Positions 5,061-64,000 of a stretch of 64,000 nt of DNA are shown piece after piece. Under the pieces are notes generated by a model, which did no database searches, was not told where the DNA came from, and saw only the letters and a program-made list of their open reading frames with translations. How positions within the stretch are numbered: the stretch's first letter is position 1; each line of letters starts with the position of its first letter. The translations under genes and the position numbers were made by a program. Source of the stretch: Raja brachyura (Eukaryota); assembly GCA_963514005.1 (NCBI GenBank), contig OY740803.1, positions 15,810,001 to 15,874,000 on the forward strand. The letters run 5' to 3'.

Positions 5061-8000
5061 TGAACATGAACATTTCCAAATATCTCAACATTTTTTTTTT
5101 AAAAACTCTTTTTTTTTTAGTATCACTAAATAGCACAGTTGAAAATAAGAGTTATACGATGTGCTGTCTTTGTCCAGCAAGCAATGATACAAAACTTGTT
5201 AGGTACATTAGAGGTAACTTCATTCTTGGAAAAGCCATTATTTCTGATTTAATGTTTGGACATATCCAGCTTATCCAGAAAAGAAAAGTCACAGTGCTGA
5301 AGTAACTCAGCGGGTCAAGCAACATCTCTGGAGAACAGGTCTCAGTGACATTTCGGGTCAGGCCCCCTTTTTCTGAGTTACTCTATCACTTTGTGTCTAT
5401 TTTTAATAAATCAGCATCTGCATTTCCTTGTGTCTCCATCTTACCCATTTTTTAAAAAATGTTTAGAAAGATCAGGTAAATCAACCAACTGTTGGTGCTT
5501 TTTTATGTTGGAAAAGGCCTTTGACATTGACATACCGGCAAGCAGAACTTAATGTGTGTGTATTGGAATGCGTGCAATTCACTATTTCCAAAATCCATTC
5601 AAAATAGAACAGGTTATATTTGGCAAATCTTTTTACATCTAATTTGAAGAGAGGAATATATATAATAAAATTAACCTGCGTACTTCCTGTGCCTGCATAC
5701 TTTAAATCCAGAACCAAAACAAAATGTATGGTTTGTTACCTGCATTCAATTTCCAGCCTGTATTAAGTGAGACAACAAAGACAACTAATGAACAAAATCT
5801 GCTTGTTTTTTCTGTACTTGCTTTTCATAATGTGATGAACAAGTGGACTGAGATAAGTAACCACCAGGGCTTGAAATGGTTGCTGATTGAGGTATGCAAA
5901 GATTGATTCTTGACGTTACTATATGTGCTTTGTGGTCCACTGTAAAATCTATCAAAAAGAATTTCCTGTGATCCATACACTGCCAAATTTACTGGTGCAC
6001 TTTTCAATAGATTAACAGGAAATTTAATTGTCGTATGCAGGTTCTACTGATTGCAAAATAGCATTGTGGGATATGTTCTATATTCATATTAGTTTTGGAG
6101 CATTTGTGGCATTTGAGAGTTAGCTGACAATTCACTGCATTATAGTCATTGAGATATACAGCATGGAAACAGGCCCATCAGCCTATCGAGTTTATGCCAA
6201 CTATCAACAATCCATTTAAAGTAATCCACCACTAATCCTATTTTATTCCACGCACATTCTCATTGCCTGCCCCCTGACTCTATTACTCACCTTCACATTA
6301 GGGAAAATTGCTATAGCCAATTAACCTACCGATCCGCGTCTTCGAGATGTGCGATTTCTTTACTTATTATTTGAAGTAAAATAATGTAAGATTAAGAATG
6401 TTTTCGTAGTTTGTTATTTAATTCATGATTTTGAGGTCTATTATTCAGATGTTTTTTCAATTAAATTAGCTTTCCATTGGTGATATACCTTATCGGGGCC
6501 TGGACATACTCAGCTAGACTCTGAAACTGGCACACTGCCCCTATATAGTAGAATCTGAATTAGAAGCCAAGAGGTAGATAAAAGAAAGCCAAGTATTAAC
6601 TGAATTGCATGTGGGAAATGATATGTTTTTTTTTTAATTGGCCATTTATGTTATACTTTCGAATAGAAAAGGATCATTCTGTACCTCCCAATGTACCACA
6701 TCTGTGTGTGTGAGTTGAAATGTATTCAGCCCCTGGCACTGCCTCCACATGTACAAAATTTAAATGTGCGCAGTTGCCAATTTTTAATATTTGTGATTTT
6801 ATCGTTCTCTCGTTCAGAATTCTCTAATGTGTGGACCAATGATGTGATGCTCACAAACCTCAATGCCAATGATCAACTTCATTGATCCACATTTAATTTG
6901 GTTCTTGGCAATGTTGCACCTCTGAAAGCAGAACTGGCTTCTGTGTTTCTCAAGCCATTCCAGCACTTTCATTGATGACGCAGTGGTGCTACCTTACAAT
7001 TTGGCTATCAGTTTCAAAGTAAATTTTTGCACAGTTCACAGAATTCAGGTTAAATAATTTTTTCCGCAGAGCTATGGGAATAGAGTACTTGAGGAAGGAA
7101 CCTGAGAAACCTTGAGGAACTAAAGTACATGAGGAACTTTCATTATGCTATCTTCCAATATTAAACCTTTATAATATTTTTGAGATGCTACCACAGTAGC
7201 ACATTTACTACATAGCTGAATGCCAAGATAACATTGTTATTTCCATTCAGGTGACATCTGTATATTTTGTTATTACAGTAAAAAGTAGACAGCAATGTTT
7301 GCATTTGTATCAAAAAAGAGAATTTGGCTCCACAGACCCATGCTGGTATTTATGCTCCACATGAGTCACCATTCATCTGTATTCTTAATAGTGTTTTGAA
7401 GTAAAAGCACTCGGTTGATTCCACTTTACAATGTAAATACAATTACTATTTCCTAGTGCATACACCTTACACTTCATCAAAAAGATATGATTTTAATTTG
7501 CACAGTTTTCAAATAATTTACAAACAGGTCAACATTCATGTTGGGAAATCTGTGCAGGAAGTTTCAAGTCGGGATGATTGCTTTACCCTTCACAACATGG
7601 CGCATTAAAAGGCTGTTAGTTTAGATCAAATAATATCAAGTAGCAGCACTATGGCATTGCTATAAAGCAGAAATATTTCTGAAGAGATCTGCAGCAGAAA
7701 GATAACGTAATTCCTCAACCAGAAAAGACCTCTGTCAAATAATGTAAATACCTAGAAGGCATTTGTTCATTAATCTCCCATAAGTACTATTAAAGTTGTG
7801 GATTGGAACAGCACCTTCTATTTACTTCATTTTTTTTGACAACTCAACAGTTTGACTTCATAAGGAACATCTGGCAGGGAAGGATTTTATTTAATGGATT
7901 AATTTGATGTATTGAATAATTAGCTAGAAATTAAATATATACGTGATGATGTGGAGTGCTAATCTTTCACAAAAAAAACATTATCCTATTTGATTTAGTA

Positions 8001-9569: not shown

Positions 9570-9720
9570 AAGTTTAATTAAGTTCAGTTTAGAGATACAG
9601 CGTGGAAAAAGGCCCTTCGGCCCACTGAGTCCACACCGACCAGCGATCCCCACACAACAACACTATCCTACACACTAGGGACAATTTACATTTATACCAA
9701 GCCAATTAACCTACAAACAT
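9570..9720 (-). mobile_element. 3' half of an HE1-like SINE (a similar decayed copy lies at about 6145-6350)
   Basis: tttagagatacagcgtggaaaaaggcccttcggcccac...aagccaattaacctacaaac. Confidence 0.78.
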
Positions 9721-9743
9721 GAGTTTGGTGAAAGATTTCTGCT

Positions 9744-10560: not shown

Positions 10561-11679
10561 ATTAAGGAATAAATATATCAGTGACTTTCAACATTTGAGC
10601 AGCTAAATACAGATTTGACATATTGCCTGAGTATTCCTGTTCCTCTGTACTAATGTTGTGATTTTTATTATGAAGGATAGTAGCACATTGAATATCTGTG
10701 AAAAGTGTCATAAAATCTTCAAGCCCATAACATTCGGATCACATGGAATCTTAAATCACTGGCATATAATGTTTCTGGATTGAAAAATTAAATCCAGATT
10801 TTAATTTTGGTAGATTATTATTTTTATGTATTTTCTTGTTGCTCTTGTTTCTCTTAATAAGTTTTCCTTTGCTCTTAAAAGTTTGTTTTGTGTGCAGAAT
10901 GTTTCATTATGTTAAATATTCTATCTTATATTGCGTGTCCTATAATCTGTTCACTTGGTCCTCATTCCGATTACCGGTAGCTAAGGCATTATACAGTCAG
11001 TTACCCTGTTCATAGGTCCCACATCCACAGTGGATGTGTACTGTGCTTCAACTTTCTAATTACTGCAAATGATAGGGCAAAGGCCCTTAGTAATGCTGGA
11101 CAAATGTAAGCAGTATGAATGGTGAGCACTATTCATTTGCTGCTGATTGCAAAAACAAATCCTTTATATAACGCATGTTCCTTGGCTTGTTTCCCATCAT
11201 AAACCAGTGAAAAAGCATGCATGATATGAAGATTTGTTTGGTACTTTGCCTAAATGGCTACAAGCCAAATATGAAGCTGCCTAAACTTGCTCTAACTTGT
11301 GACGGCATGGCCCATTTTTGCAAGGTCTCCACTTGTAAAACCCTTCGGGCCTCACGTTAAAAGGTAGCACAGGTATATGCAACATTCTTCTTTGGTTTTA
11401 CTCTATGCCAAAAAATTGTGTGTCTTTTCATGGAATTAATCTGTTGGTGCTCCCACTTTGAATTCATTTTCTTCCTGCTGGTTGATTTTCCATTCTTTTT
11501 ATTATTTTGCTTTCTATTTGTTCTGTATCTTCTTTTACAATCCTTGTCAATTTCTGATTTGAGTCAATACTTTCTTCTCTCTGAGTAAATGTGGACCATT
11601 TATTATTTAGATGTTTTGATGCTAATTTTGAATTCAAATTACAAGTCAATATATCAACAGAGCCGAATGAGTGTTTCTA

Positions 11680-17040: not shown

Positions 17041-20000
17041 TAGACCAAATGTCTCCAAATTGGCCTATACGACAAAACCTTCGACTCAAAGGAGTCCTGC
17101 CACTTAGTCAGATCTAAAATATTAAATATTTGCATTGGAAATCCAGAATTTCTGGAATAGTTACATGTGGTAGACTTTGTGGCAGCAGAGCGAATATTTA
17201 CAGAGCGAACAACAAATGTCTGTAGCTTTTTAAAAGAGTAAAATACATAGGAAAATACAAAATTAACATTGAACGCTTGGCTTTCCTGTTCAAACTATTA
17301 ATAATTTTTGATCTGAATTGAAGTCCAGCACGTAAGACTTTTTACGTAAGACTAAGTGGAAATGTACTTAAACGTACTTAAACAATTATTCCTGTAGACA
17401 CAAGGGACTTCAAATGCTGGTTGACAAAAAATGACACAAAGTGCTGGAGTAACTCATCGTGTCAGGCAGCATCTGCAAGACATGGAAAGGCAAATGTTTT
17501 GGGTCGGGACACTTTTTAAGGTGATTGTAGTATGGGGGTGGGGTGAGCGAAAGCAGAAAGGGGGACGGGGACAGGTGAAAGTCAAAACCAGGAAAGTGAT
17601 AGATGGAAAGGGGGGGGGGGGGTGATTTGTATTTTATGTGTGCCTCTGTCTTTAACTGCTTCTCTGATATTAATATTTCCAACCTGTTTAGCCAAGCTTG
17701 TAGCTTTCTTGCAATGTTTTAAAAGGATGTTTGGATCATTTTACCAGTCTGGATGTGCTTTTTAAAGTAAACACTTTGATGGAAGGATAATTGCAAGCGA
17801 GCACTATTGTAAAATTATCATTTATTTGCCAAGCAACAGATGCGTATGACAATGTTTTATTGCTTTTTGTATGTGTGGGTGCCACAGACAGCTTTCATTC
17901 AGGTATATATTTCACTTTTAATATATACTGTAAATGTGCTCAAAGGTGTTTTGGAAGTCTGAATCGATCCAGTTTATGCAACTTTCTGATTTACCTTTTA
18001 ACGCGACAATTTTCAGTAGATTCTTTAATCTTTTCATTAGAATGTTTGTTTTATCTTATCTGAACTGCATGGTTGCCATAATTCTTGGTTGGTCCTCATA
18101 TTGAATGAGCAAAATCAACTTTTCATACTGAGTTCTTATCAGCAGCAGAGGGTACAGGCAGACAACTGGCTGCCAGAGCAGTATTAATATTGTACTGCTG
18201 CTGACTATCATTAGGGAAGAAGCAGCTGATGATTAGAAGATTAGGAAGACGGTACAAAACTTGCATGGTCCCATTTCTTGACACCGCTTAGAAATGTTGA
18301 TAAGTGGCCGATGTCGACTTAAGTTGTCATTCTTCCTATCACGCACTCGATGTCTTGAATTTCCCTCTCCCAAAGCACCTGTTCATGTACCAAACCTCAT
18401 TGTAGACCTGTTCAAAATAATTTCATCAAAAACAGCTAGACAGTTTTGGGAACTGTCAAATTTTGTGAATTCAGTTTTGCGGTTATGTTTTTCTGACATC
18501 TTTGGAAGTAAAATTGTTTAAGTATGCATTATTTTGTACAGATAATTCAATTTGTTCTACAGGAAAATAATTGAAACAGACTTAGTCATCTAACGGTAGC
18601 ACTCTTCATCAAATGCTAGTTTTTTTTTAACCAATGTGCATTTTTTTAATGTTTCATCTCTTCCTATTTAAACCAAGGAGAAGAACTGTGGTTAAAAATT
18701 CAACCAGAGTTCATTGACATTAAATATATTGGCATATTGACATGCAATAATGCAACATGTGAGCAGAATTGTGAGTTTCTTCAATAACATTATCTCTCAT
18801 AATTATATTTCCATGCAAAGATTATAATTTCAAGATGACCTTCCTCTGCAGTTATGCATTTATTTGTGTCAATAAATTTGAATGATATCCAACAGGAACG
18901 ATACTATTTAAACTATATTATTCTCCATCAACACTCTGCTGTACACTCATTGTTTGCCCATGACTCTGGGTTATTTAACCGTTGTGGCATTTGCAGTATG
19001 CTTAAAAATCTTGTTTGTACTGAAATTACTGAAGGGTTTCCTGCTGGATCTAATTGGCCAAAGTTTCTTTTTGGGGTCGTGTTATGTCAAAGGAACATCG
19101 GTTTTCAAGTGCCTTGTTAAGTTTTCGTTCTCATTTCCTTCCTTATTGAGATTATTTCTTTGTCACCTTCAGCCTCAGCCAACATCTGGTTATTTGTGGA
19201 AGTGAAAACTCAGAATTAGTCTAAAATACATTGAGATACTGGAAAAAGAAACAACTGCTGGTTGTACTAATGTGATGAATTATACATTTAGAAAGTTACC
19301 TTCAAACTTCTTGTCATTGACTGAGACTTGAAATAAACAAAATTCTGTTCTAGCTGTATCCAAAACAATGTACAACGAAACTACTTTGATTCATTAGCTG
19401 TCCTGCATAAACAGAACAGGGCAAAGAAAGCTGGACGTGTGACTTGCACCATGAGCTAAAACAAGTGTTCTATAGATTTGCACCTGGCGTCAGTCAAAAA
19501 GCTGCAACCCAATCAGCAAGTGTCCAATGTTCTGGGTCAGTTACAAAAAAGTACACAGTATAGCAGCTCTTAAGTCTGTTTTATGCCATTGTACTAGATC
19601 AGCTGTCAATTGTGTGCCTTTCTTGTGAGGGAAATTCTCTCTAACATTTAGACTTTGAAGTAGTAAACCAGCTGTTTCAAGCACCATTTGGGCATACTGT
19701 ATGTGTGTCCATGTGTCCTTCAAATAGTGCGCAAATCTGAATGTGATATGTTTATTCTTACAAGGAATACACTTTTGAATCCTCCCAAAAAACTTTCATT
19801 CAGAAAATACTCTTTAACTGGAACCAATTTCTATATGCACATGGGATCAGTATAAAAGTGGTTTAACTAATGAACATCACACTTCATTTCAACTATACAT
19901 TAAGAGCAACAAAATATAACACAATATGAAATTATCAAATATCCAATTAACATGACCCAATTGGGTTAGCCTAACCTCAGAATCAGAATCAGAATGCCTT

Positions 20001-20329: not shown

Positions 20330-21195
20330 CGGGCCTGTCCCACTTAGGCGACTTTTTAGGCAACTGCAGGAGACTATGCGGTCGCCACATGTTCGCGGAT
20401 GGTTGCCGGGTAGTCGCCTTCATGGTCGTGAGGAGTTCCCGCAGTCAGGGAACTGGTCGCGGCCTCATTATGGTTGTCGCGAATTTTTCAACATGTTGAC
20501 CAGAACGAAGCCACCATGGAGAGCAGCGAGAATTTTCGTGCTAAAGAAGAACTGCAGATGCTGGAAAATCGAGGGTACACTAAAGGCTGGAGAAACTCAG
20601 CGGGTGCAGCAGCATCTAAGGAGCGAAGGAGATAGGCAATGTTTCGGGCCGAAACCCTTCGTCAGACTTTTCGAGAATTTTCGTGCCGTAGGTGCAGTGG
20701 TAGTGGGTTGCCAGGAGATTGAAGGTTCTCATAGGTTCTTGTAGCTTAAAGCCATTGCTGACCGGTGAATTTCATGGGCTCATTGGGGAAAAAAAAAGTT
20801 AGCAGTATTTTTCAGAATCAAGGATAATGTCTGCCGAGCTTCACAGCCGTGTATCTCAGGCTTCTAAAAGCTGTCTCCACTCCTTCTACCCCCTTCTCCC
20901 CCCACTCCCTTTTAAGGAACTTCCCGTACACTTTCACCGTCGTAATTACAGCGGCAACCTTCCTGTTCATCGCGGTGTGTGTCTGTATCACATTGGCTTT
21001 GCACTGCGTGAATTTCACTCAGACTGCGCTCCCTCCGCTTGCCCTGTCCCCCGCCTGCATAACGGGCTGGTGAATTAAGCGATGTGTGTGTGTGTGTTCC
21101 ACTCTGACAGTTGCCGTTCCAGTCACCGGTTTTTCAGGAAAAACCTGAAAAATCGCCTAAGTCGTCTGAAAAATCGCCTAAGTGGGACAGGCCCA
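20330..21195. mobile_element. Non-autonomous TIR DNA transposon (MITE), subfamily B, copy 2, with a nested insert
   Basis: Same TIRs and interior as 14053-14797, interrupted at 20542-20671 by a Penelope-derived insert. Confidence 0.87.
20542..20671 (-). mobile_element. Short Penelope-derived (pLTR/hammerhead) insert
   Basis: 15-bp direct repeat CGAGAATTTTCGTGC (20527-20541 and 20672-20686). The minus strand has CTGACGA A GGGTTTCGGCCC GAAA. Confidence 0.8.
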
Positions 21196-25718: not shown

Positions 25719-26999
25719 CAATGGTACAGAATCTGGATATCCCATATTCAATGGCTGGTTTTGATGGGCTTAAGATACCAGCGGCTGTTACACGCATTTA
25801 TCCGCACATTTGCTCGAATCCAACGTTAATCGTGTTTTCTTCAGTGGAGCTCAGAAGTCCTGGGATTTTCTCCGCATGTCTTGAAGGTGGCAGAGGAGAT
25901 GGGAAATTGAAAAAGTAGACAGAGAGGAACATGGAAATTGGGATTTTATAAATAAATGGGTGGAGGTTATGTTGAATATTCATGAAGTACTGGTTTAAAC
26001 CCATCTTGAGTATCACGTGAGTGTGTACTACTTTTGAAAAAAGTCATCACAGAATCTACATGAATAAATTATTTTATAATATTCAATAAATGTGTTTATT
26101 ATGTATCCTACCACACCACATTTCAAAGCCAATTGTTTCAGTGGTTGAGACTGGTTTATTGAAGAGAACAGTTTAGCCCATTAATATAAAATAGGATTTA
26201 TGAAACTGCTAAATGTAATTTTTATTCATGGTTTCTGCAAACACTCCCTCCAATTTCAAATTGAATCCCATTCCTCAGCCATGAAAGCTGAATGAAGCAA
26301 AACTTTTTTATGGCATTTTATTTATATTATATCATATTTATGTTTATTCTGACCTGTCCATTTCACATTGATCCTGTGTAAGTTCCTATTATGTTTGGAT
26401 GATGTATTAAGTGGAAGAGTAATATAGCATTCATGCCCGCAACATTTTTTAAGGAGAATCTTTAAGGAAATTGTTCTGAGAAGCGTTTAATCCAATCTTT
26501 TTTTACATTTGGAACAGGCAATGCTGAATCTTGAAGGCTCTTTCAATTAAGTTTAATTAGGAATTGTGTTTTTGGTTAATTGTTCTGGTCTTTTTTTTTG
26601 CATTTTTGCTCTTGTTGATGTTTGTAGAAAATGTTAACCACTTTAACACATTAATATATTAATCAGATGTGTTGATCGGCATCATGAATGCAGAACAATA
26701 GAATGGAAAATAAAGATGACAGTCATAAATACAAACTGCTGGAGTCTGAAGAAAGGTCCAGCCCAAAACATTGTCTGCTTGTTCTCCTCCACAGATGCTG
26801 TCTGAACTACTGAGTAACTCTAGTCATTTGTTTTGTGTTCAAGATTCCCACAACAGCAGTCTCTTGTATCTGTAGGGTTTTTTTTAAGTTGAATCTTACT
26901 TGGTTCCATTTGGGTGACAATTAAACATGTAGGGCTCAGCCATTATCCCAGTAACAGCAGTTCATATTGCCTTTGGTGCATACAACAGTGGTTTAGCAG

Positions 27000-28291: not shown

Positions 28292-31200
28292 ATCTATTTT
28301 TAAGTGAATTGAAATGTAATTTGATTCCTCTTTACTGTGTTAAAGTTAATAATCCCTCTGCTGTGATAAAGCATAAGTGGCTGCCCTGATCATGGGACAA
28401 TTGTGTAGCCAACCTTCATGTGTTTAAAGTGGTTGCCATCCTCATTTGACAGGCTACTGCAACTCCATCATGTTCCTGGGTAGATATGGGATGATGGATA
28501 GGAAGTAACGCCTGGCTCTACTGCAGAACTTGTTCATGCTATCCAATTATGAAGCAACAACACCTGCCCCCAAGAACCCTTTGTAAAAGATACTGTCATT
28601 AATATTTACCTTGGAGAGCTCCATAGACCTTTTTTGGTGAAATAACCACACATTCCTTAAAAGAAATGTCAATAAGTGAAAGTTGTTTTTAACAATTATA
28701 TAAATAGTTTATTGAGTAAAGAATTAAAATAGTGCTGGAGTTTGCACACTAGATTTTGAACAATGCGTGAAGGCAGGTTTAGAATTCCTGAAGTGTTCCT
28801 TGAGATTCAAACCAATAATTTTTAGATAATGCCACATTTTGATATTTTGAGGTAATATTAGATTTTCCTTCCTTTTGTGTGAAATATTAATTTGTTGATG
28901 ATGTAATGGAATGATAATAAATCAACCTTGTTTATGTTCACATGCTGGAGCAATGGTACAAACATAAATCACTTAAAAAAAATATATATATCATCTCATC
29001 CTTAAGAGACATAAGATTGTGCAGCGGAGCATGACCACCTGACTGATTGGACCTCCTTGTCATTGGACGAAGCCTTTGTCAACACCATCTGGTAGCTAGA
29101 ATGCAATGACCAACCCTCATTAAATGAAATTAACACACATCCATCTTCTGCTCCTCAGAACTGGAAGAAGGATTCCGACCCGACACATCACCTATCCGTT
29201 CCCTCCACAGATGCTGCCTGACCCGCTGAGTGATACACGCTACTTATGCTTTTTTGTTTGCATTCATGTGTTATAAAATCCATCATTCAGAAAAGTAATA
29301 ATGGTATATCAACTTGCAAACTGCATCTCTGCTGCAAAACAGATCAGAGTCTCTTTGAGCTGCAGATGCAAAACTGGAATGAATCCCTGGCACCTATAGG
29401 TTTTGCACATCTGCAAATTAAGCGGAAATTGTGGACATCAGCTATCAGGATTGAGGAAGGGCTGACCAGCAGATGATATGGCTCCTCCCACCGACTTTCA
29501 TGGAACATGCAGCCCATTTACAGTATAGTACTGGTAATGCACTAGTAATTCAGCAGGCACGTGGAGCTGCAGATGCTGGAGCCTTGAGCAAAAGACAAAG
29601 TGCTGGAAAAACTCAGTAGTTCTGGCAGTATCAGCGGAATGAATGGACAGGCGACGTTTCAGGTTGGGACCCTTCTTCGGACTGAAGAAGGATCCCGAGC
29701 TGAAACATTGCCTGTCCATTCCCTCCACAGATGCTGCCTGATGTAGAGTTCTGCTATAATTCAGAAGCCTGAACTGACAATCCAAACATCTGACTTCAAC
29801 ATCCAGCATAACAGCAGAGAACTACAATTCAGTTAATAACTGTAATAGGAAAGAAAAGACCAGCTAACAGTAATCTAGACAACCAAAAGCGTGTCATGAG
29901 AACTCATTTAGTTCATCAGTGCCCTTCAGAAGAGGAAACCTGGTCAAGTCTCTACGTGATTTCATGAAAATGTGATAACCAGGGATGGACAATGTTTGCT
30001 GAAGTAACCAATGATCCTAACAAATGAACAAATAAGGTGGTAATTTGAAATAAAACTGACCTGATGAAACCAGTTAACCCTGCCTCGAATGGCAATTGAT
30101 TCCCGAGTTTGTTGCACGGAAAATAACGTCATGTCACCATACGGATAACCTGCTATTGCAACTCTTGGGCTGTTTGCACTAGTAATTCCAAAGGAATTAG
30201 ATCAAACTCAGGAACAACTCATTTGTAACATACTTGTTAACCAGGACAGTGCCATAAAAGTTACAAACCACCATTGTTCTATTTTGATATCAATGTTTTT
30301 TATATCACCATTTCGCCTTAGTTTCAGGTTTAATTTAAAAAAAATCTATTTTTAAGTGAATGGAAATTTAATTTGATTCCTCTTTACTGTGTTAAAGTTA
30401 GTAATCCCTCTGCTGTGATAAAGCATAAGTGGCTGCCCTGATCATGGGACAATTGTATAGCCAACCTTCATGTGTTTAAAGTGGTTGCCATCCTCATTTG
30501 ACAGGCTACTGCAACTCCTGGTTAGATACGGGATGATGGATAGGAAGTAACGCCTGGCTCTGCTGCAGAACTTGTTCATGCTATCCAATTATGAAGCAAC
30601 AACACCTGCCCCCAAGAACCCTTTGTAAAAGATACTGTCATTAATATTCACCTTGGAGAGCTCCATAGACCTTTTTTGGTGAAATAAGCACACATTCCTT
30701 AAAAAAATGTCAATGTGAAAGTTGTTTTTAACAATTATATAAATAGTTTATCGAGTAAAGAATTAAAATAGTGCTGGAGTTTGCACAATAGATTTTGAAC
30801 AATGCGTGAAGGCAGGTATAGAATTCCTGAAGTGTTCCTTGAGATTTAAACCGATAATTTTTAGATAATGTCACATTTTGATATTTTGAGGTAATATTGG
30901 ATTTTCCTTCATTTTGTGTGAAATATTAATTTGTTGATGATGTAATGGAATGATAATAAATCAACCTTGTTTATGTTCACATGCTGGAGCAATGGTACAA
31001 ACATAAATCACTTAAAATATATATATATATATTATCTCATCCTTAAGAGACATAAGATTGTGCAGCGGAGCATGACCACCTGACTGATTGGACCTCCTTG
31101 GTTGGTCCAAGGAGGTCCAATCTACCTCCTTGGATCAAGGAGGTCCTTTGCTGTTTGCACTACCTCCGTTGTGCAAACAGCAAATTACTGTTTGCACTAG

Positions 31201-37599: not shown

Positions 37600-38270
37600 A
37601 TAGTTTAATTATTGTCACTGCACCGAGGTACAGTGAAGAGCTTTTGCTTTTGCATGTTCTCCAGTCAAAGTAACGACGATCCATGAATACAATCAAGGAC
37701 CCACAGTGCACAGATAAAGAATAAAGGGTACACTGAAGATAGACATAAAATTCCGGAGTAACTCAGCGGGTCAGGCAACATCTCTGCAGAAAAGGAATAG
37801 GTGACATTTTAGGTCAAGACCCAACATCAGACTGAATTACTCCAGCATTTTGTGTCTACCTCTGGTGCAGTCCCCTCTTACACATAAAGGATACAGAATT
37901 TAGTACAAAATATCGCATTTAGTACAAAATATAGCATTGAGGTCCAATATAGTCAGAATAAAGATTATTCAAAGGTCTCCATTGAGATAGATGGGAGGTC
38001 AGCGTTGTACTCTAGCTGTGAGAGGCCTGTTCAATTGCCTGATAACAGCTGAGAAGAAACTGTTCCGGTATAGGGAGGTATTTGTTTTCAAACTTCTGAA
38101 CTTACCTGATGGGAGAGGGGAGAAGGAGGGAGTGATCGGGGTGAGACTGGTCCTTGATTATGCTGGTGGCCTTGCTGAGGCAGCATGAAGTGTAGATAGA
38201 GTCATTGGAAAGGAGGCTGATCTGCATGATGGTCCACAACTCTCTGCAATGTAGATGAACTTCTGGGATC
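37600..38270 (-). mobile_element. Rex1-like LINE 3' end, interrupted by a Penelope-derived insert at 37733-37883
   Basis: Same 3' UTR as 16672-16900 (ttattgtca...gtacagtgaa.agctttt) and a gcctgataacagctgagaagaaactgttcc segment. Confidence 0.72.
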
Positions 38271-38482: not shown

Positions 38483-38878
38483 GGTAGACGAAAATGCTGG
38501 AGAAACTCAGCGGGTGAGGCAGCATCTATGGAGCGAAGGAATAGGTGACGTTTCGGGTCAAGACCCTTCTTCAGACTGATGTGGGGGGGAGGAAGAAGAA
38601 CAGAAGAAGCAGAGACAATAGGCTGTGGGAGAGCTGAGAAGGGGAGGGGAAAGAGGGAGAGAGCAAGACTACCTGAAATTGGATGTCAATGTTCATACCG
38701 CTGGGGTGTAAACTACCCAAGCGAAATATGAGGTGCTGCCCCTCCAATTTGCAGTGGGACTCACTCTGGCCATGGAGGAGGCCCAGGACAGAAAGGTCGG
38801 ATTCGGAATGGGAGGGGGAGTTGTAGTGCTGAGCCACCGGGAGATCAGGTTGGTTAATGCGAGCTGTGCAGAGGTGTT
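38483..38878 (-). mobile_element. Penelope-like element 3' fragment: GIY-YIG endonuclease C-terminus plus pLTR with hammerhead motif
   Basis: Minus-strand PVAQHYNSPSHSESDLSVLGL...CKLEGQHLIFRLGSLHPSGMNID resembles the PLE GIY-YIG C-terminus. It is followed by a pyrimidine tract and the repeat unit seen about 15 times in the window. Confidence 0.82.
38547..38574 (-). ncRNA. Minimal type I hammerhead ribozyme motif (intact core)
   Basis: The minus strand reads CTGAAGA A GGGTC TT GACCC GAAA CGTC: CUGAnGA core, stem II, GAAA, palindromic ACGU stem III and GUC cleavage triplet. Activity is not shown. Confidence 0.7.
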
Positions 38879-39766
38879 GTTTACATCTTCCAATGCTTGC
38901 TCAAAGGCCATGTGAAAAAAAATTGTGTTTGAATTTCTGTCCCCCACTAGAGAACAACTCCATGTCGGCTTCGATATTACTTTGTAAGGCCTTAATCAAT
39001 GTTTAGCTTGCTGTTAGTGGATTGTGCAAAAATCTGGACACAGTATATAACTGCTATAACTGCACATACCATGCCCTTGGCTCCTTCCCACTTTTTTTGC
39101 ATCTGTAATATAATTAATATCTTGCTTTTGTAAAATGAATTTTTAAGCAAATTAAAACAGTACATTTTTAATCACATTCTGAATCATTCATTAGCACATA
39201 TGACATCTTAAGTAGATTAAATCTGATGCTCATTGATCTACTGTGAAATTAATTTTTGTGTTTACACATTTTTTTTAATAAGACATTGCAGTGGACTTTT
39301 TGACTAATAAGGCAGAATTAACGTGAATCAAAAAGTTTTAAAAATGTACTCAGTATTCACTTTTAAGTGCTCTTTTTAATTCAGTGTTTGTTTCGCCTGG
39401 TTTTAAGAAGATTCTTTGCATTTGTTAATGGCAAAACAATGTACACGCTGGGCATTGTAATGCGTAGAAGAATAATCAAAGTTGATTTTGCCGTACTTCA
39501 GAAGGGCTTCAACCTTGAAAAGAGAAAATGTTTTGTAAAAGATATTCTTAAAGGGGAAAAAAACAGTGCTGGAGTAACGGTGGGTTAGGCAGCATCTGTG
39601 GTGAACTCAGATGCTGAGTTACTCCAGCATTACCTTTTTCTTGTAAACTAGCACTCGCAGTTTTTTTGCTTCTCTATATTCTTAACGGAATTCAATAATG
39701 TGGGGCAAGAAAATTTTAATTCCTTAATGTTTCAAGCCTAAGACATCTCCCTTTCTCTTTGTTTAG

Positions 39767-40977: not shown

Positions 40978-41107
40978 AAAGAAGGGTCTCGACCCGAAAT
41001 GTCACCTATTCCTTCTCTCCAGAGATGCTGCCTGTCCCGCTGAGTTACTCCAGCTTTTTGTGTCTATCTTCGGTTCAAACCAGCATCTGCAGTTCCTTCT
41101 TACACAC
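40978..41107 (+). mobile_element. Short Penelope-derived insert; other single-arm copies at about 17395-17530, 26740-26872, 29160-29260, 43590-43717, 46645-46733, 49655-49747, 62392-62520 and 62680-62765
   Basis: gaagggtctcgacccgaaatgtcacc...agatgctgcctgtcccgctgagttactccagc...ccagcatctgcagttcc. Confidence 0.78.
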
Positions 41108-43449: not shown

Positions 43450-44195
43450 ATTCAATGGTGGCACTTCCACCTTTAAGCTTCTCATGGATATGAGTGTCAG
43501 TCCGGAGCCATGAATCTAGCACTTCAGTGCAGTGTTTCAGGGAGCACAAGCTTTCAGATAGGATGTTAAACTGAATCCACATCTACCCTATGTCTGAAGA
43601 AGCGTCTCAACATGAAACGTCCCCATTCCTTCCCTCCAGAGATGTTGCCTGTTCCGCTGAGTTACTACAGCATTTTGTCCCTACAATCGATTTAAACCAG
43701 CATCTGTAGTTCTTTCCTCCACATCTGCCCTCTTGGGTTGATGTACTATCAACCAAGACACTGATCAACAGAGGGCATTAGAATTCACCCTGTTGACTTA
43801 CCAGTAAGCTATCCCCGTGTTAACATTTCTGAAAATAATTACTGCTTTATTGCCTCTGGAAGATTGCAGTTTGCAAATTAGCTCTGCCTACCTATATTGC
43901 AACAGTGATCAGATGCACACAGATCTTTTATTACAGAAAGTGCTGGAGTAAGTCAGGCAGCATCTCTGGAAAACATGGATATATGACATTCCAGGTCGCG
44001 ATGCTTCTTGAGACTGAAGAAGGGTCCTCAACCCAAGATGTCACCTATCCATGTTCTCCAGGAATGCTACCTGATCCACCGTGTTACTCCAGCACTTAGT
44101 CTCTTGTTTTGTAAACTAGCATCTACATTTCCTTGTTTCTATTTATTTTTGGTTGTTAACGGCTTTGAGACATCCTAAAGTCATGAAAGTTGTTG
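43450..44195 (+). mobile_element. Decayed Deu-domain SINE (SacSINE1/AmnSINE1-like), split by two Penelope-derived inserts
   Basis: cagtgcagtgtttcagggag...tttcagataggatgttaaactga...ctgccctct, gcaaattagct...tattgcaacagtga and ctttgagacatcct resemble the Deu-SINE consensus as recalled, not aligned. A possible minus-strand remnant lies at about 8580-8800. Confidence 0.5.
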
Positions 44196-46733
44196 TGTGT
44201 GAAAGTTTAGCCAACCAAGTGTAAATATTACAAAATATAAATAAAACAAATTATGGCCCAAGAAATGTTGCATCTACTGAAGGATTAAATCACGTAAAAT
44301 ATTACCTTGGCAGAAACCAAAACAAAATTGTTGAAAAATAAATCAGCTAGTTGATTCTTTGTCAATGTTTTATTTGCCATCTTTGATTCTGTAATTCTGC
44401 CGTGTTTCGTTTTTAAAATATCTATCCTTCACGCTCTCTTCAGTTATTTACTATTTTGACTGCCATGTCCCTGACAATGAAACGATTAGTCCTAATTGAA
44501 AGTAACATTTTAAAGAAACCTGCTGAACTGGAATTCTGACATTTGTTGAATTATACTTATTTGCTGTCAATCAAGCAGCTTTTTTTCATTATTACTTAAA
44601 CATCATTGAAAATAGCACGAATAAACTCTGGTTAAGTAACCTATAACTCGAGGGGGTTGGGTGGGTCGCAGTAGAGTTGCGTGTGCAATAGGTATGATCT
44701 GTGACAAGGAAGTGAAGCGTGGTTCGGGAAATCATTGTGACGCATCAACGGACAATGGTTGTACATTTTCATAGACCAGGAATCTCTCCCCTCCCAAGAA
44801 AAACAGTGTCACGAACAGGCAGTGTTCCACCTAGAGGCCTCAGCAAGAAGTTCAACAAAGACAAATAGCACTTGAAGCTGGAAATTAAAACTGATGACCC
44901 CCCTCCACCCTCCACCCGTTTGCTAACCTCCACAATTGGCAATTGGAACATTTAGTGCTCAGGATTTGCAATGTAAAACTCGTATCCTAATTGAGATGCA
45001 GTGTGCTGTTTTGGGGTCAGTGGGATGTTTTGTTTCGTCGAACGCTAATATCAATATGATTGCAGTGCACAAAAGATTTGGTTAAATGATCCGATTGTTT
45101 TACTCAATGCAAACGTATGATTCTGAACACGGTGGCGTTTGCCCTGGAGTTTCTCAAAGAGGGAAACAAACGCTGTCTAAAAGTACAGAGAAACGCACAG
45201 CCTGTCTACATTCACCATCCGGTGTTTTAACGCCTCAAGTGCGTTTCGAACAAAGTTTCATGTCTCAAAAGTTGTTTTTCCCCCCAGGACGGATCCGAGC
45301 GGGACCATTCCAATGCTCGGTCGACAAGGTCCGAAAACTAGGCAGATCCGCTCTCTGCTGCCTGCCATGGTATTAAAAGGTCCAGACACCTCGCCAAACC
45401 CCTCGCCCGTAACCCCCTGCTCCCTACCAATGACAACAAATGGTCTGGTTTAATCTCGAAATCGCGTTCAAATACCTTCGCGGTCTGTCAGCGGCTTCGC
45501 CCCTCTCTGCCTATGGTCTCCTGTCGGCAAATCTCTCTGAATGTGGAGTTCCCCACATTGATGCAAACGCCCTGGTTTCCTTTCCCAACTTTTGGCGGCT
45601 AGATCCCAAACTGGAGAATTACTTTCCTACACTCTTCAATTTAATCCAGTCTTTAGGATTTAACCAAACTAATATCCTTTCTCATATCTTCAGCCCTCTG
45701 TCGAGTCTGGGGGTACAATTTACACCATATGCCACTTCGGCCACTCCAACGCGGCTTCCTCGTCACGACCCCGCGCTTTATCACCCCACTCGCCTTTATT
45801 TCCACCCTTTAATTTAAACGTGTGCATTGCCCTTGGCCTTCATGTGGCAGCTAGTTCAACTCTCTGCGAATAACTTGCAAACGGATTAATCGTTGGATTA
45901 ATTGATGACTATTCGACGTGTTCCCACAAGTAGAAACATCCCTCGACGCGTCGACTCTCGAATCCCCTCATCCTATGTTTGTTCAGACGTTGGGAAATAC
46001 CTCGGGGATGGAGATTTCAGCAAAGATAGATGGATACTTTTGGAAAATGCGAATAACGACATATAGCAGTAAATTCTCTTAACACGTTGAGGAAATGCAC
46101 ATTAGTGCTTAAAACTGAGCGTAAAACTGCAGCATCTAGAAATCTATGAACAAACAATTTTGAACTACGTGTGTGGACGCGCTGCTAATAAATGACTTTG
46201 CTTCTTCAATATCCCAGAACGTTGAAGAAATGGTAATCTCGCTAACTTGTACATGAATCCTTCCATCCCACAACTCCCCTCTCTATTAATTTTATGTGCT
46301 GTAGGTTATACTTGAAGGAGTTGTTAAAGGGCAATTAATCCCAAATTAAAACTCGCTGGAGGTTAAAGGTCACCAATAATTAAGATTCATTGCATTTTCG
46401 GTCTTGTACAGCTGGGCGATGGCTGGTGCAAGAAAGCACGCAGCTGGTCGAGGGCGGATTCATTCCACCATTAACCCTTTGTATGTACATTGACAGAGAA
46501 GGGAATATCGGGCAGATGTATAAATCTCGCTGACCGTGTATCCAAGAAATGTTATTTTTTTCTGCTGCCATTGAGTAATTGTACCTCGCGTACCTCATTC
46601 ATTTAACTATTCTCAAACGGGTAACGATCTGGACAAAGTGAATCAGTCAGGCGAAGGGTCCCGACCCGAAACGTTGCCCATCCATTCCCTCCACAGATGC
46701 TGCTTCACCCGCTGCGTTCTTCCAGCACTTTGT

Positions 46734-47040
46734 AACACCTCCAGATTCAGGGACAGTTTTTTCCCCCAGTTGTTATCAGGCAACTAAACCATCCTCTCAC
46801 CAACTAGAGAGTGGTCCTGAGCTGCTATCTACCTCATTGGAGACCCTCGGACTGTCTTTAATGGAAATTTACTGGAATTCTTCTTGCACTAAACGCTATT
46901 CCCTTTATCTTGCATCCGTACACTGTGGCCGGCTTGATTGTAATCGCGTATAGTCTTTCCGCTGGCTGGATAGCACGCATCAAAAATAACTTCACTGTAC
47001 ATTAGTACACGTGACAATAAATTAAACTAAAGCAACGAAC
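46734..47040 (+). mobile_element. Rex1-like 3' end inserted into a Penelope-derived element (a related copy lies at about 51330-51590)
   Basis: ccagattcagggacagtttt...gtgacaataaa, flanked by a 9-bp direct repeat GCACTTTGT (46725-46733 and 47041-47049). Confidence 0.75.
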
Positions 47041-48234
47041 GCACTTTGTGCTTTACTCAAGATTCCAGAAGTTGCCACTTTATGTGGGTCAATTTAGTTG
47101 AAGCGCGCTCTACATTAGAGGGTTGGGTTGTTTGAAACCGTAACATTAAAGTTTTGGAAGGGATCAACCCAAGGTTTACCAATTAGCCAGGAGAATAACT
47201 GTCCACATTTGATTTGATAGTTGTCGTTAAGTAAAGCAAGCCCTACCGCTCCAAGTGGAAAGCTCATCCTTATCTATTCTGGGACATGTTTTTTTTCTCA
47301 CTGAATAAAATAGCTAACAATTATGGATAATAAAGATACATTTCTTTCTGCATATAATCTTTTAACCAGTTGGTCGTTTGGTCGATGTTTTTTAGTGGAG
47401 AGTATGCTATTGAAGAGATTCTCGACTCGTTAAAAACTACGTTCCACATTCGAAGTTTTTTTTAACAATCTTTTTGTTACTCGCAATAATTGTGTACAAA
47501 TGGTTTATTCCAGAACAGAATGCAAACGATTGACTAGGTTTGCAAAATACATTCATATGGTTTTGTCATATTTCAAAACGGGCACTTGTGCGTGTAGTGC
47601 GATCAGCTCACAGGGTGGGGGGTACAATTTTGAAATTCAATCAGTCGCCAATAGTTTTTGAAGCCGGCGATAGATGTCTATAAAATACGACACAACCGGG
47701 TTGTCATCTTTCAACTAACGTCTCCTTTAGCAATTATATGGTGACTAGTTTACTGTCGCCACCGGATAGTTCCAGGGATTTACTTTATTTAAGAACCGCT
47801 CTCTCAGATATCCGTGCCTTAATAAGGATTCGCTAATGTGAGTATTTATTCCCATTGCTCAGTCTAGTCTGACATTAGCGCAGTGCCGAGCAAGAGATGT
47901 AGGGTCGGGATTTTATCTCCGAGATTCATGTGTAGGAAGGAGCTGCACATGCTAGTTTAAACCGAAGATAGACAAAAAGAGCTGGAGTAACTCGACGGGA
48001 CAGGCAGCATCTCTGGAGAAAAGGAATAGGTGACGTTTCAGGTGGAGTCCCTTCTTCCAGAGCTGCTGTCTGACCCGCTGAGATACTCCAGGTTCTGAGA
48101 TTCCTTACCCCGGACAGGTGAGAATCTCCAGTCTTCATTCAGAAAAGAGAGCGGGGGATTTCTGGGCATGAAGGGAATCAAAGGATGTGGCGATGGTGCA
48201 GTAAGTTGGTGCTGCGGTAGAAGATCACATCATC

Positions 48235-49201: not shown

Positions 49202-52038
49202 ATATGGATATCATACACTTTGCCTAAATATCAGATTGTTAAAGGGACGGTTATATTAATATACCAACGAAGGACCTTGTTATGAATCGATTGGCTATGT
49301 TTCCTAAAAGGCGACAATCATACATTTCAACATCTGTTTTTAAAAGAGCTCTCGGGCCTTCTGATGCCGTCAACTGGCAATATAAATGTAGCTTGTTCGT
49401 TTTACATCGCAACAAGAAACTAAAACTGAGTAAGGAAGGGTGATGTCATTCACGACAATTAAGTACAAATTTAAATATGTTTATGTATTATAACGTCCGG
49501 GTTATTTATTAAAACCATCCACTCAGTTCCCCTTTATAAAGTTGCTGCTGGAACCGCGAGATATTCCCAGCAACGTCTGTTAGTTTTCTCCCTAAATAAT
49601 GGCAGCAGTTAAAAAAAAAAAAAATCTGATTTGGTGGTATATTGTATTTGAAGTCTGAAGAAAGGTCTCGATCCGAAACGTTACCGATTCCTTCTCTCCA
49701 GAGATGCTGCCTGTCCCGCTGAGTTACTCCAGCTTTTTGTGTCTATCTTGTATTTGAAGTTGATAGAGTGGTACAATTGCAATCCTATTTTCAGGTAACG
49801 TTTGCTGAAGGTGCAAATGCAGGTTTCCAGTTTAGGCTGATATTCCACATTGAAACGCAACATTTTTTAAAGGCGTTGCACTTTAGAAGAGATAGATTAA
49901 TTGCGAATCCGGAAGCACTCGTCAGATTTACGGTGATCTTTAAGACAAATCCACTTCAGGTTAAAACGGCCGAGGATTAGACGGGCAGTGTAAGAAGGGC
50001 GCCTTTATCTAAACCTGGATTGTTTCCAGATAATCCATTGTAATGGTCATCGCGGACAATGGGCAAACCACAGAGAGGCTAATTAGGTGGATAAAATATG
50101 GATATGATACACTTTGCCTAAATATCAGATTGTTGAATGGTGCACGGTGTAAACGTGTCGCTCTCATTCCTTATATATAGGAATTTGGCCCAAGCATTAC
50201 TTTTCTTGAGATAATGGTTATCATTGTATCAATTTTCAGTTGAATTCCATTTAATTTAGTTCATTGGCACGGCGTCAATGCAAACATTTTCCAGCCAGGC
50301 AGCAAACACCGTAGCCGACCTGACTGACTTGTGAAATGTATGACACAAAAAGCTGGAGTAACTAACTGTATGTCCGGCTTGTTAGATTCACTTTACTTCA
50401 TGGGAAAACCTCCAACACTGAACTGAGAATCCAAAAAGCAAAGCCGAGCTAAAGTTTCACCACCGCAGCCATGTTTAAACGAGCGTGTTCATCCAAACAC
50501 ACTTGGAAGGGATGGAAAGACTAATGATGAAGGCCACACTGAACTGCATGGCTTATGGTCGCAATTCTTTGAAATAGTCAAAATCAGACACTTGTGTGGA
50601 TTTTTTTTTGAGAGGAAGGAAGCAAGGGTAGATGTAAAAACATCTGGTCTAACCATGTCAGATGCTTTTGGCACGGCTTTTAGTCCAGGAATCATTGTCC
50701 GTGTTCTGTGATCTAGAAACGGCTTCTTTTATTGTTTACCCATATTTTAATGCTAATTTGCAAACACAGAAGAAGCGCCCAAACAGATGTGAACCATTTG
50801 TTTGGATTGTAGTTCATTTGTCAGGGAGAAGGGAAGGCTGCCTCGCAGGATATTAAATATTACCTCGACCATTCACCGGCACTTCATATTTCAGAGTTAG
50901 AATAGATGTCGAGTTTGTAAGGAATAATGAATCTGTCCAGCGCTGCAGAAGAAGACAGACGACTGCTTGGGGAATTTTAGAAATGGAGTAAGTATTTATA
51001 ATAGTTCCTGACCACATCCCGGGAAGATTACAAACACTCTTCACGCCAGCCCCAGACGTTGTGCTTTAACCCTCGAAGTGCTGAACTTTCTTATTATTGT
51101 TTAAAAGTATCTACAAGGCGACAGAAAACTTTTAGAATCAAAACCACGTCTCCATCCTGACCATTTCCCGAAAACAAGTAACACTTTGAGATGTAAAATC
51201 CATGCCAGTGTACTCGTGATACGAGAGTGATGTCCATTCCAACATTAACACCTTGTATTTACTGTCCCGTCCTCTACAAGGAGTAAGTCGTTTATTAATT
51301 TCAATAACCGGATGAACTATTTAATATAAGACCATCCTACCAACAACTAGAGAGCGGCCTTGCGCTACTATCTACCTCAATTGAGACCGTCGGGCTGTAT
51401 TAGATCGGATTTTACTGGACTTTATCTTGCAGTAAACGTTACTGGCTTTATTCCCTAATCTCGTGTCTGTACACCGTGGATGGCTCGATCGTAATCAGTA
51501 ATCACGTATTGTCTTTCTGCTGACTGAACAGCGCGCAACAAAAGCTTTTCACTGTACCTCTTTACATGTGGCAATATACTAAACTCAATATTAGTTTGAT
51601 TGCCCCGTGTTACATGCGTTTTACATGAAAACTTTTAACAAAATCTATTGCCTGCCCACCTCCAACGTAGAAATGTTTTTCACAGCATCACTACATTTAT
51701 ACGCCAGCTATTTGTACTTGTCGTTGTTAACTCCGAGATATAACACTTATTTCCTGACTCTGATGGTAATTAACTGATCTCTGAATGCCTCATTGATCAC
51801 CTGCCAGGAATCATTTGCTCCTTTATTCATCTCAATAGGGTCTACCATTTAAAACAAATGACCGCCCGTGTTTAAAGAGCGAAACTGTTTACATTTATTA
51901 TACTCCATGATCGATACCGGCAATACGATACCTTCATATTTCATACGCTTAACTGTAGGAGCGAAATATACGCGCCGGTTAATATACGGCGCAGAATTTG
52001 AAATCTTGTTAATATTACGTCTCTATCCGCTTAGTTCT

Positions 52039-55712: not shown

Positions 55713-56321
<609 letters not shown>

Positions 56322-61483: not shown

Positions 61484-61739
61484 TGGCACCGCGGTACAGT
61501 TGCTGCCCAGCACCAAGACATGGGTTCAATCCTGATTAGCACGGAGTTTGCACGTTCTTCCTGAGACCGCGTGGGTTTTCTGCGGGTGCTTTGATTTCCA
61601 CCCACACTCCAAAGACGTATACGTTTTGAGATTAATTGGCTTCGGTAAGGATTGTCCCTCGTGTGCAGGATAGTGTGAGTGTAGGGGCATCACTGGTTGT
61701 CGTGGACTCTGCGCTGTATCTCTAAAGTAAAAGTCTAAA
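61484..61739 (+). mobile_element. HE1-like V-SINE in HS3ST3B1 intron 1
   Basis: ggttcaatcctga, ggagtttgcacgttct...gcgtgggttttctgcgggtgct and ctgtatctctaaa tail. Confidence 0.8.
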
Positions 61740-64000
61740 GATCCACAACAATGCAAATTGCTAAGTTAGCAATTGGCAGCTGGGGAGAATAGTGGGGAAT
61801 GGAGTGGCTAAGAGGTGCCACAGACTTGATGGACCAAATGGGATCTTAATGTCCTAAGGAAATCTTACAAATTGACGATTTGTGCGACTGGGAATTGAGA
61901 GCTGGAAGGTTTCTCTTTATTTCTCAAACTAGCCCTATTTGAGAGGTTGTCCAGTTTCCTGTGGTGATCTCCCCATCTGTGTGCGAGGCGGAGGCAGGGA
62001 CAGGAGGGTTTACTCGGACCATCCTGAGGTCTTTGCTAAGCATTCAGTAACATGAAACTACCCCCCCCCCCCCCCTCTATTACTAACTTTTTAGAAAATA
62101 ACAGCGGTAAGTTTTAGAAAGATAGAATAACTTTGAACTAATATCTGTAACAAGGAACACCGACTGGTCTAAATCCAGTGGGAAATGAACGGTTGCAGAA
62201 ATTTATATCCCTGGAAAGGATTTTAACCCATGCTTGCATTGGCGTTTGAAAGAATAAATCATTTGTCCTCAACAGTCCCTTTCAAAGAGTTGTAGGATAG
62301 CTGAGTATTTGCAAACATACACTTCCGCTTTGGAAAACATTGGCTTGACTTGGTAATTGTAATTGGTTGCCAACCATTATTTTCAGTAATGTGTCGGAAG
62401 GAAGTGCAGATACTGGTTTACACCGAAGATAGACACTAAATGTTGGAGTAACTCAGCGGGTCAGGCAGCATCTCTGGAGAGAAGGAATGGGTGACACTTC
62501 GGTTCGAGACCTTTCTTCAGTTTGATTCAACACTTTTTTTTTGCTGGGCCAGTTTTGTGCGGCTGAAACCAAATAAAGATTATTGTTCAAACCCTTGGAA
62601 ATCTGAAAGTATAAGTGTCTCTGGTTAGAATTGTAATCTCATTGTAGTTTAATAGTGTGAGAGGACAATGATGTGACTCAGTCTTGCAGAAGGGTCTCGA
62701 CCAAAACGTCACCCATTCCTTCTCTCTTCTCTCGCCTGTCCCGCTGAGTTATTTTGTGCCCATTTACATTCCCTTCTAAGAATGGGATGGACAGTTTGCA
62801 ACGGAGAATGTAAGAGTAGTGAGGTAGGGGCCCGCCAATGGTAAGGCACAGATTACCAATGTAATGCCATTTGACTTATGGAGCAGGAATGGGGTGTGGT
62901 GTTTGGGGCAGAGAGGGGGAGGCTGCGGAGAGTCGGGCGTGGTGAAGGCATGTTAGTAGCATCAGCTGCCATCAGCGATTGGAATCCAGTGGGTAAACAT
63001 CCTCGCTTGTAGGGTTACATAGAAATTAATGCCATTCTTATTGCTGATGAGCCGCAGACCAGTATACCCTTGAGGGACTTGTGCCTTGCCAATAATAGAT
63101 GTATGTGACATCAATGTCGATATATGTACACCATACAGGCCATTGGTGGAGAATGGACACTACTTGGGCTTGGCTCCTGATCCCCTTGTGATGAACAGTA
63201 GTGTGGGAGAAGGAAAGGAAAGACAATGTATTTCACGTTTCAGTAAGTTCCAGTGTGAAGAATAAAATCTAACTTCATTATAAAAAGAAAAGCCCAGAGT
63301 GTTTGATTCATTTTCTTTGCTGGGGCCAGTTTTGTTCTGCTGTAACCTAATAAGGATTCTTGTTCAGATCCTAGGTAACCTGGATGTATGAATGCATCTG
63401 GTTAGAATATTAATCTCATTGTAGTTTAATAGTGTGAAAGGACAACAGTGTGACTCACCGATACCTTAATTAACTAGAATGATTTGTGTGTTAAATTCCA
63501 AGTCCCTTATCAGAACCTGTACTGTGTGCCAACTTTGGAGCCATGGAAACTTGTTTTATTGAAGCAAATATCCTTATATCCTGGGGCTTCAATAGGCATT
63601 GCAGATATATTTACATGTGACTATATACATTTAAAATAATAGCATAAATTAAGAGATAATAGTATAATTCTATGCAATAGGCATTTTCTTTCAATTCATG
63701 TATCGTGCATTGTTTAAATTGTATTTTCAAAACCATTGGAGCAGATCTCATTAAAGGGAACATAAACGCAGCACACTCTATTGTAGCATTGTTGCTCCCA
63801 ATGTGGCAGATCCACTGTGTTGCTGAAACTTAGGATCCAATTATATACTTAATGAATTGTTTGTATTTGGGGACCATCGCTTGTGCTAGAGGAAGGACTC
63901 GGTGTAACTTTTGTCCAGGAGATTACAGAAGGCACCTTTACCGAAAACATTGTAAATGCCAAACAACATAAGTGGATGGGCGATGGGTAAACGACCTGCC

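Follow-up and report, generated by a model that had tools for sequence, protein, structure and literature searches.

Short hammerhead-bearing repeats of the skate Raja brachyura as pseudo-LTR ends of a Penelope-like element, with a possible origin in run-off copying

Endonuclease-bearing (EN+) Penelope-like elements (PLEs) are described as inserting in 5'-truncated form, with a pseudo long terminal repeat (pLTR), an adjacent inverted copy and an optional tail of 30-40 bp (Craig 2021 PMC8557442; Arkhipova 2013 PMC3846280), and a tail on one of two inverted pLTRs has already been reported (Arkhipova 2013 PMC3846280). The hammerhead ribozymes of PLEs are presented mostly as single dispersed motifs, ascribed to truncated PLEs, with pairs on opposite strands also noted (Cervera and de la Pena 2014 PMC4209133). 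For a PLE of the anole, priming has been described at two internal sites, with both strands extended and with uncut RNA as the source of the insertion (Frangieh 2024 PMC11167929), and retrozymes are reported from the single chondrichthyan sampled in a study that also counts dispersed 'monomers' (Li 2026 bioRxiv 10.64898/2026.07.22.740005). Here, we compare with these systems a family of short repeats, or units, in a 64,000-nt window of the 2.70-Gb genome of the skate Raja brachyura (G000:C23:15810001-15874000). The units are almost certainly the hammerhead-bearing pLTR ends of an autonomous PLE of Neptune type. The joint reading, in which the units are PLE ends and the short ones are run-off copies, is on balance the probable one.

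The parent element was reached by way of a GIY-YIG search, which yielded PLE proteins, one of which led to intact relatives; the first lead of that search, another PLE family that lacks the unit, was set aside. The parent (L154) has a 1,191-aa open reading frame (ORF) beginning at an ATG that lies 163 nt after the start of the hammerhead core, carries a unit at each end and is flanked by a 10-nt duplication. A second element (L155) resembles it, and two others (L156/L157) form a tandem with a period of 3,965 bp. Pfam matches of the parent ORF to RVT_1 (E 4e-4) and GIY-YIG (E 2e-3) are both weak and under the curated cut-offs; its Atlas neighbours, at 0.97-0.98, bear RVT_1/HTH_animal/GIY-YIG, and it shares 32% identity, across 720 aa, with another PLE family whose GIY-YIG match is above the cut-off. 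The translation directly shows a CX2-5CxxC linker separating reverse transcriptase (RT) and endonuclease, as well as two cysteines within the GIY-YIG motif, and these are described as features of Neptune or Nematis PLEs (Craig 2021 PMC8557442). The linker, together with the reported occurrence of Neptune in vertebrates, suggests the Neptune rather than the Nematis label. Several near full-length elements (L151, L153, L158, L159 and L166) often start at or just past the point where the tail of the 5' unit ends, 80-170 nt downstream of the start of the core, as if the enzyme halted where a second enzyme sits.

Away from the parent, in 600 kb of random DNA, the unit lies 94-513 nt downstream, on the same strand, of 14 of the 18 ORF fragments that reach the C-terminus. 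The window itself contains one such case, in which the last 69 aa of the PLE endonuclease are encoded at 38682-38888 on the minus strand (75% identical to the parent translation, E 3e-25). The link to PLEs drawn in the initial annotation is thus confirmed, since the unit flanks an intact RT/GIY-YIG ORF and a window copy retains the endonuclease C-terminus, which is also the one copy for which the accompanying statement that the units carry no ORF fails. In addition, 133 nt of the window copy at 20543-20669 align to the intact parent at 92% identity. The pLTRs occur in direct, inverted and partial tandem arrangements, with an optional tail at one end. The skate element is therefore like the EN+ PLEs of Neptune type described by Craig (2021 PMC8557442) and Arkhipova (2013 PMC3846280) in its single ORF for RT and C-terminal GIY-YIG with a Cys linker, its partial tandems, inverted 5' copies, one-arm tail, duplications of 9-15 bp and pLTR hammerhead. 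It differs from the insertions described there in that the skate copies number about 1e6 and are dominated by pieces of 95-135 bp with a sharp common 5' boundary.

A search profile grown from the copy at 49655 gave 21 matches in the window and none in each of five shuffles. A second, longer profile, which takes in the tail of about 35 nt, gave 23 matches at 17 loci spanning 5284-62766, of which 11 are single copies and six are head-to-head pairs (Table 1). The recurrent repeats proposed earlier are therefore real, but the count of about 15 units roughly every 4 kb becomes 17 loci at a mean of one per 3.4 kb, unevenly spaced. Neither are all of them simple copies, as six of the 17 are head-to-head inverted pairs, including one within a duplication (37721/37884) that had been assigned to a simple unit. 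Across the genome, 1.0 Mb of systematically spaced DNA contained 401 matches, of which 132 are arms of inverted pairs; the density in the window is therefore ordinary for this genome, and the extrapolated genome total is about 1.1 million profile matches.

In the parent hammerhead no core base is missing; stem II has 4 bp and stem I 2 bp, and stem III is self-complementary. Core boxes, stem II, palindromic stem III and NUH cleavage site are complete in the parent and in the window copy at 38578. The motif is like the minimal metazoan PLE hammerheads (Cervera and de la Pena 2014 PMC4209133) in its CUGANGA box, with one extra base, its G-C closed stem II, GAAAC-GUH and palindromic stem III, and differs from most of those described in its stem I of 2 bp, as in the D. 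virilis variant, and its stem II of 4 bp. In the window, no Rfam match reached the gathering score. The 5' region of the parent has a fold stability no better than shuffles (z 0.92), and the hammerhead is not its minimum-energy fold.

Among the copies the ribozyme is in decay. Core and stem II are both intact in 36 of 147 sampled copies, and in only two of the 18 window arms that cover the core (20669 and 38578), so that the conservation of GGGU/RCCC in stem II reported earlier is not general. Nor is a fit of the variation to the structure supported: no stem pair exceeds 1,000 column shuffles (best 53/1,000), with 0-3 double changes per pair and stem variants that are one-sided and of wobble type only. 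The catalytic G is lost as at an ordinary CpG (34/142 vs 25/135 at non-core CpG, p 0.31), and non-CpG divergence is alike in core and body (80/1309 vs 167/2312, p 0.22). In the six larger sequence clusters the majority sequences retain the core, with much of the downstream body equally fixed. The CUUG loop is a CpG-decay form and CCCG a subfamily variant, whereas changes at N7 are rare (three C, three U and three G vs 81 A). The variation in loop and N7, being decay and subfamily variants, therefore gives no sign of selection on the copies. The hammerhead is of the known minimal PLE type and decays neutrally in them.

That the units inserted independently with target-site duplications, as had been proposed, is upheld by flanking repeats above control. 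Flanking repeats scoring at least 10 were found around 12 of 64 random short copies (control 1.1%) and 27 of 53 young ones (control 1.3%); the duplications are mostly 9-15 bp, ranging from 9 to 18 nt. The four direct repeats claimed in the window are all in place (around the copies at 20543, 37729, 43591 and 49651) and occur nowhere else, and weaker repeats of 10-13 nt surround four further window pairs. Flanking repeats were also seen around 46 of 106 inverted pairs, a figure with no separate control, and each such pair is therefore a single insertion event.

The earlier observation that several copies start right at the core holds genome-wide, and 5' ends are non-random along the PLE. The young subfamily comprises 21,300 exact copies of the 46-nt core, a pattern that leaves out copies truncated inside the core; 13,415 of them retain the AGT found upstream in the parent and 6,268 retain 11 nt, the latter count leaving out upstream variants and point mutants and thereby understating the long class. 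In about two thirds of the young copies the 5' end thus lies no more than about 11 nt ahead of the core, and the long class makes up about one third. Among the first 30 young loci, which include four pairs that overlap or duplicate, 19 end 0-12 nt upstream, 11 extend for 145 to more than 1,500 nt, and none lies between. In a random sample of 148 core-reaching matches, 82 are short, 36 are inverted arms and 30 are extended, although some of the 82, with pyrimidine-rich flanks, are probably unrecognised extensions. Recurrent truncation at the ribozyme hairpin, one of two origins offered in the initial annotation, comes close to this position but appears to miss it, as the ends lie just 5' of the entire motif, whereas an enzyme blocked by a hairpin should come to a halt on the 3' side of the motif.

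The boundary reads CCAGTCT or TCAGTCT, which matches the initiator consensus. Where the base ahead of AGT is not C it is G in 1,410 cases, A in 828 and T in 483 (52% G vs 28% expected by composition), an excess that fits copying of the cap. A duplication followed by a single G and AGT was found at three of 30 G loci, as against no like arrangement at 30 A loci, and the stuttered 5' pieces at some junctions fit template-end jumping. At the other end of the unit, 3' ends fall into two clusters about 35 nt apart, the additional stretch being the known PLE tail. Single copies occur without the tail (66), with it (48) or in unclear form (16). In inverted pairs, one arm with a tail is joined to one without in 79 of 89 scorable pairs, where 44.5 would be expected (p ~1e-14; 17 of the 106 could not be scored), and in 38 of 50 pairs from random DNA only.

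With slightly better than even confidence, we take the short copies to be run-off products of internal priming in the 5' pLTR of the RNA. Judging from the boundary, transcription would start at or beside the A of CCAGTCT/TCAGTCT, and the mRNA would then hold the unit twice, within the 5' untranslated region (UTR) and at the 3' end. On one RNA, the two nicked strands of the target would serve as primers at the two start sites. Priming in the 5' copy would give a product of 97 or 132 nt that terminates at the cap, priming in the 3' copy would give long copies with random truncation, and inverted pairs would arise where two short products are joined head to head. In such copies the hammerhead would travel along as a passenger, being copied without cleavage and decaying afterwards. 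An internal promoter with initiator and downstream promoter elements (Inr/DPE) is known from fly Penelope. A close counterpart is PAc, a Poseidon element of the green anole (Frangieh 2024 PMC11167929), in which two RT start sites define the tail, both strands are extended and uncut RNA is the substrate, as is proposed for the skate PLE. PAc belongs to another clade, and the hammerhead described for it overlaps the start codon, whereas the skate ATG lies well past the core start. The further step, that the copies record an enzyme with two active sites priming both strands 35 nt apart and running off the cap, with the hammerhead at the transcript start, may be regarded as evenly balanced.

Several observations weigh against run-off copying, including the two limits on the young-copy counts given above. 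The G excess is also seen one base further in (G 2,436 vs T 1,204); moreover, 12 of the 30 G loci are inverted joins, in which the G may derive from the opposite arm, and among random copies, which are mostly older, the base counts are G 4, A 2, T 0 and C 15. Of 20 long loci, picked by ORF length, none has its 5' end exactly at the proposed start; the closest begins 16 nt inside the core, and 5' ends scatter across several bases. In addition, no RNA 5' end was seen in assembled contigs of sequencing runs guessed to be RNA, which cannot reveal starts; in these the unit is represented deeply and the ORF thinly.

It is unlikely that the units are the same PLE ends with a boundary set by stalling or fold-back rather than by the start of the RNA. 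The near-palindrome TCAG-N-CTGA does lie at the boundary, both arms reach it in 8 of 44 pairs from the random DNA and the window, and antisense self-priming has been proposed for head-to-head repeats (Arkhipova 2013 PMC3846280). Nevertheless, single, non-inverted copies share the end point and have clean duplications (27/53), the fold stability of the 5' region is not unusual, and fold-back alone predicts neither the tail/no-tail asymmetry nor the extra G. Somewhat less probable is a non-autonomous SINE (short interspersed nuclear element)- or retrozyme-like family with an internal promoter, re-copied by the PLE protein, which corresponds to the other of the two origins offered in the initial annotation. 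Such a family would account for the excess of short over long copies (about 2:1), and, given an internal promoter, short copies would hold every cis element; pLTRs are described as able to act in trans (Arkhipova 2013 PMC3846280), tandem retrozymes as derived from pLTRs (Li 2026 bioRxiv 10.64898/2026.07.22.740005), and tandem units are present at a few other places in the genome (L014, L022, L023; L324-L326). However, young short (39/82) and long (37/47) copies share the same commonest body sequence, and all six clusters of more than 25 members include 12-46% of copies with an upstream pyrimidine-rich extension. A small TACCC-type subgroup is confined to short copies (at least 6/82 vs 0/47 long), which makes minor short masters possible. 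The 5' end of the unit is the PLE pLTR itself, and no tRNA, 5S or 7SL head was found in the window at Rfam thresholds, which a decayed head could escape. Furthermore, a short copy joined to host DNA would be without the downstream ORF sequence reported as required by the anole protein. Animal non-LTR retrozymes (Cervera 2020 PMC7229834; Li 2026) are alike in their type I hammerhead, ORF-less unit and PLE ancestry, but they are defined there by tandem units and circular RNA, whereas the skate copies, which occur singly or head to head, derive directly from a coding element as pieces of it. No tandem with at least two complete hammerheads is present in the window, same-strand neighbours within 150 bp account for 17 of 282 sampled matches and are mostly partial, and the 2-bp stem I does not match the 6-bp helix I of retrozymes.

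The remaining explanations concern the RNA that is copied. A 3' splice site at the boundary (pyrimidine tract, CAG|T), with short copies arising from spliced or splicing-stalled RNA, is very improbable: the upstream sequence is acceptor-like and the intron of fly Penelope is described as terminating at helix I (Cervera 2014 PMC4209133), yet thousands of short copies retain the AG/CAG that splicing would remove (the 13,415 with AGT against the 6,268 with 11 nt), no common exon-1 sequence precedes them, and no GT-AG joint to the boundary occurs among the 15 of 34 contig joints listed. Two related proposals were dropped, namely a splice-activated stem I, as short copies have no common exon sequence ahead of them, and an AAG-GTATG donor downstream of the unit, as its ATG opens the ORF. 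That self-cleavage of the ribozyme sets the 5' end of the copied RNA is extremely improbable, even though the parent has every core base and a self-complementary stem III and, among 30 loci inspected for such starts, about four single loci, one three-unit tandem and several inverted joins start at the cut site. Cleavage would take away the core, which the majority of copies retain, and starts at the cut site are at least several-fold rarer than those at -2 to -4: 306 purine-preceded matches, about half of them point mutants with the core present and without a neighbouring-position control, compared with 2,238 at -4, counted under a longer pattern. A small true peak at the cut site may nevertheless exist. 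A terminal-inverted-repeat DNA transposon or miniature inverted-repeat element was also rejected, as the inverted arms vary in length, being head-to-head pLTR pieces, and the duplications range from 9 to 18 nt. Apart from these alternatives, three 61-nt tandem units of the 3' part of the unit (L324-L326, G000:C2:55272484-55272640) start exactly at the predicted cut site, and L014 and L022 are small tandem arrays of 66-nt units that begin within stem II.

Table 1. Units in the window (window coordinates) and, in the last row, a separate telomere-associated PLE family
Feature	Position	Strand	Details
Weak, very old match (26 bits)	392..451	+	outside the range of the initial annotation; absent from longer-profile matches
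Head-to-head inverted pair	5284..5431	.	- arm 5284-5374 lacks the tail, short + arm 5373-5431 has it; decayed core; flanking repeat of 10 nt (weak) 5251/5458
Old single copy with tail	17400..17520	-	profile match
Short copy with tail	20543..20669	-	begins AGT-CTGA; core and stem II intact; 15-bp duplication 20527/20672
Old single copy with tail	26743..26866	+	begins AGT-CTGA; no duplication found
Old single copy	29163..29233	+	3' portion decayed
Inverted pair	29563..29750	.	junction at TCAG-N-CTGA near-palindrome; 11-nt flanking repeat 29546/29757
Inverted pair	37729..37884	.	- arm without tail, short + arm with tail; inside 12-bp duplication 37721/37884
5'-truncated PLE	38483..38888	-	endonuclease C-terminus 38682-38888, 3' UTR, unit 38483-38578 with intact core and stem II
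Inverted pair	39561..39665	.	both arms begin downstream of hammerhead core; 13-nt flanking repeat 39542/39676
Short copy with tail	40978..41107	+	begins 2-3 nt inside core; about 790 bp past UbiA-family exon stop
Short copy with tail	43591..43724	+	begins GT-CTGA; 14-bp duplication 43576/43718
Inverted pair	43932..44138	.	both arms extend to core start; + arm with tail, - arm without
Short copy without tail	46645..46747	+	core decayed
Inverted pair	47928..48094	.	tail on - arm only; + arm short; flanking repeat of 10 nt 47918/48094
Short copy without tail	49651..49755	+	begins AGT-CTGA; 13-bp duplication 49642/49748
Short copy with tail	62389..62522	-	begins CTGA
Short decayed copy without tail	62685..62766	+	profile match
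Telomere-associated PLE	L115 (G000:C8:89395001-89405000), L116 (G000:C21:1-10000), L097-L105	n/a	many further chromosome ends

The pyrimidine-rich stretch upstream of the copy at 17400..17520 may be a remnant 3' UTR of an older subfamily. As regards neighbouring genes, 39742-40191 (+) is a terminal coding exon of a UbiA-family gene that resembles COX10, and the copies from 5284 to 39665 probably lie within introns of this gene; 55713-56324 (+), in a GC-rich region, is the first coding exon of a sulfotransferase resembling heparan sulfate 3-O-sulfotransferase 3. Fragments of other retroelements, of long interspersed nuclear element (LINE) type, lie at 767-1874 (-), 2859-3302 (-), 11654-12212 and 48881-49160, with an RVT_1 match at 1206-1874. 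The stretches 28286-28975 and 30338-31014, spaced by about 2,040 bp, are a recent local duplication with about 97% identity. Another short repeat that is abundant but unrelated to the unit (families D8, D14, D17) is present at 13780-14008, 9583-9721, 25576-25695, 27675-27787, 32408-32480, 33490-33688 and 61538-61648.

A separate, very young endonuclease-bearing PLE family, also unrelated to the unit, lies in tandem beside telomeric repeats at many chromosome ends. Its units of about 6.6 kb end in (CCCTAA)n, with the 5' end toward the chromosome tip at both ends examined, and some arrays are without telomeric repeats (L113, L117). Its ORF1 (602 aa) matches GDSL esterase weakly (E 0.002, under the cut-off), its ORF2 (760 aa) is of RT/GIY-YIG type with copies mostly 96-100% identical, and it has a full type I hammerhead of its own. 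For Neptune-like PLEs, esterases are already known. The family has the appearance of a vertebrate EN+ PLE that targets telomeres, and a literature search found no paper on such telomere targeting.

The element class and the ribozyme of the unit family are already known, and the family is a further PLE of Neptune type. A literature search, which did not extend to repeat databases, found no paper on a fixed 5' boundary in PLE copies or on the skate unit family; the sole result for this family in sharks and skates was that Penelope is named among the repeats of the whale shark. For annotation, about one million short repeats of this genome are to be labelled as PLE ends, rather than as SINEs or retrozymes. 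The formation of the inverted repeats, tails and 5' ends of PLEs is left open by the literature covered here, and it is in the mechanism that the value of the skate family may lie. An active family with intact ORFs and more than 21,000 identical young ends provides testable numbers, namely for where the RNA is predicted to start, for two priming sites and for an almost obligate pairing of arms with and without the tail. If the run-off reading is true, the short copies would be a million-fold genomic record of two steps of Penelope retrotransposition.

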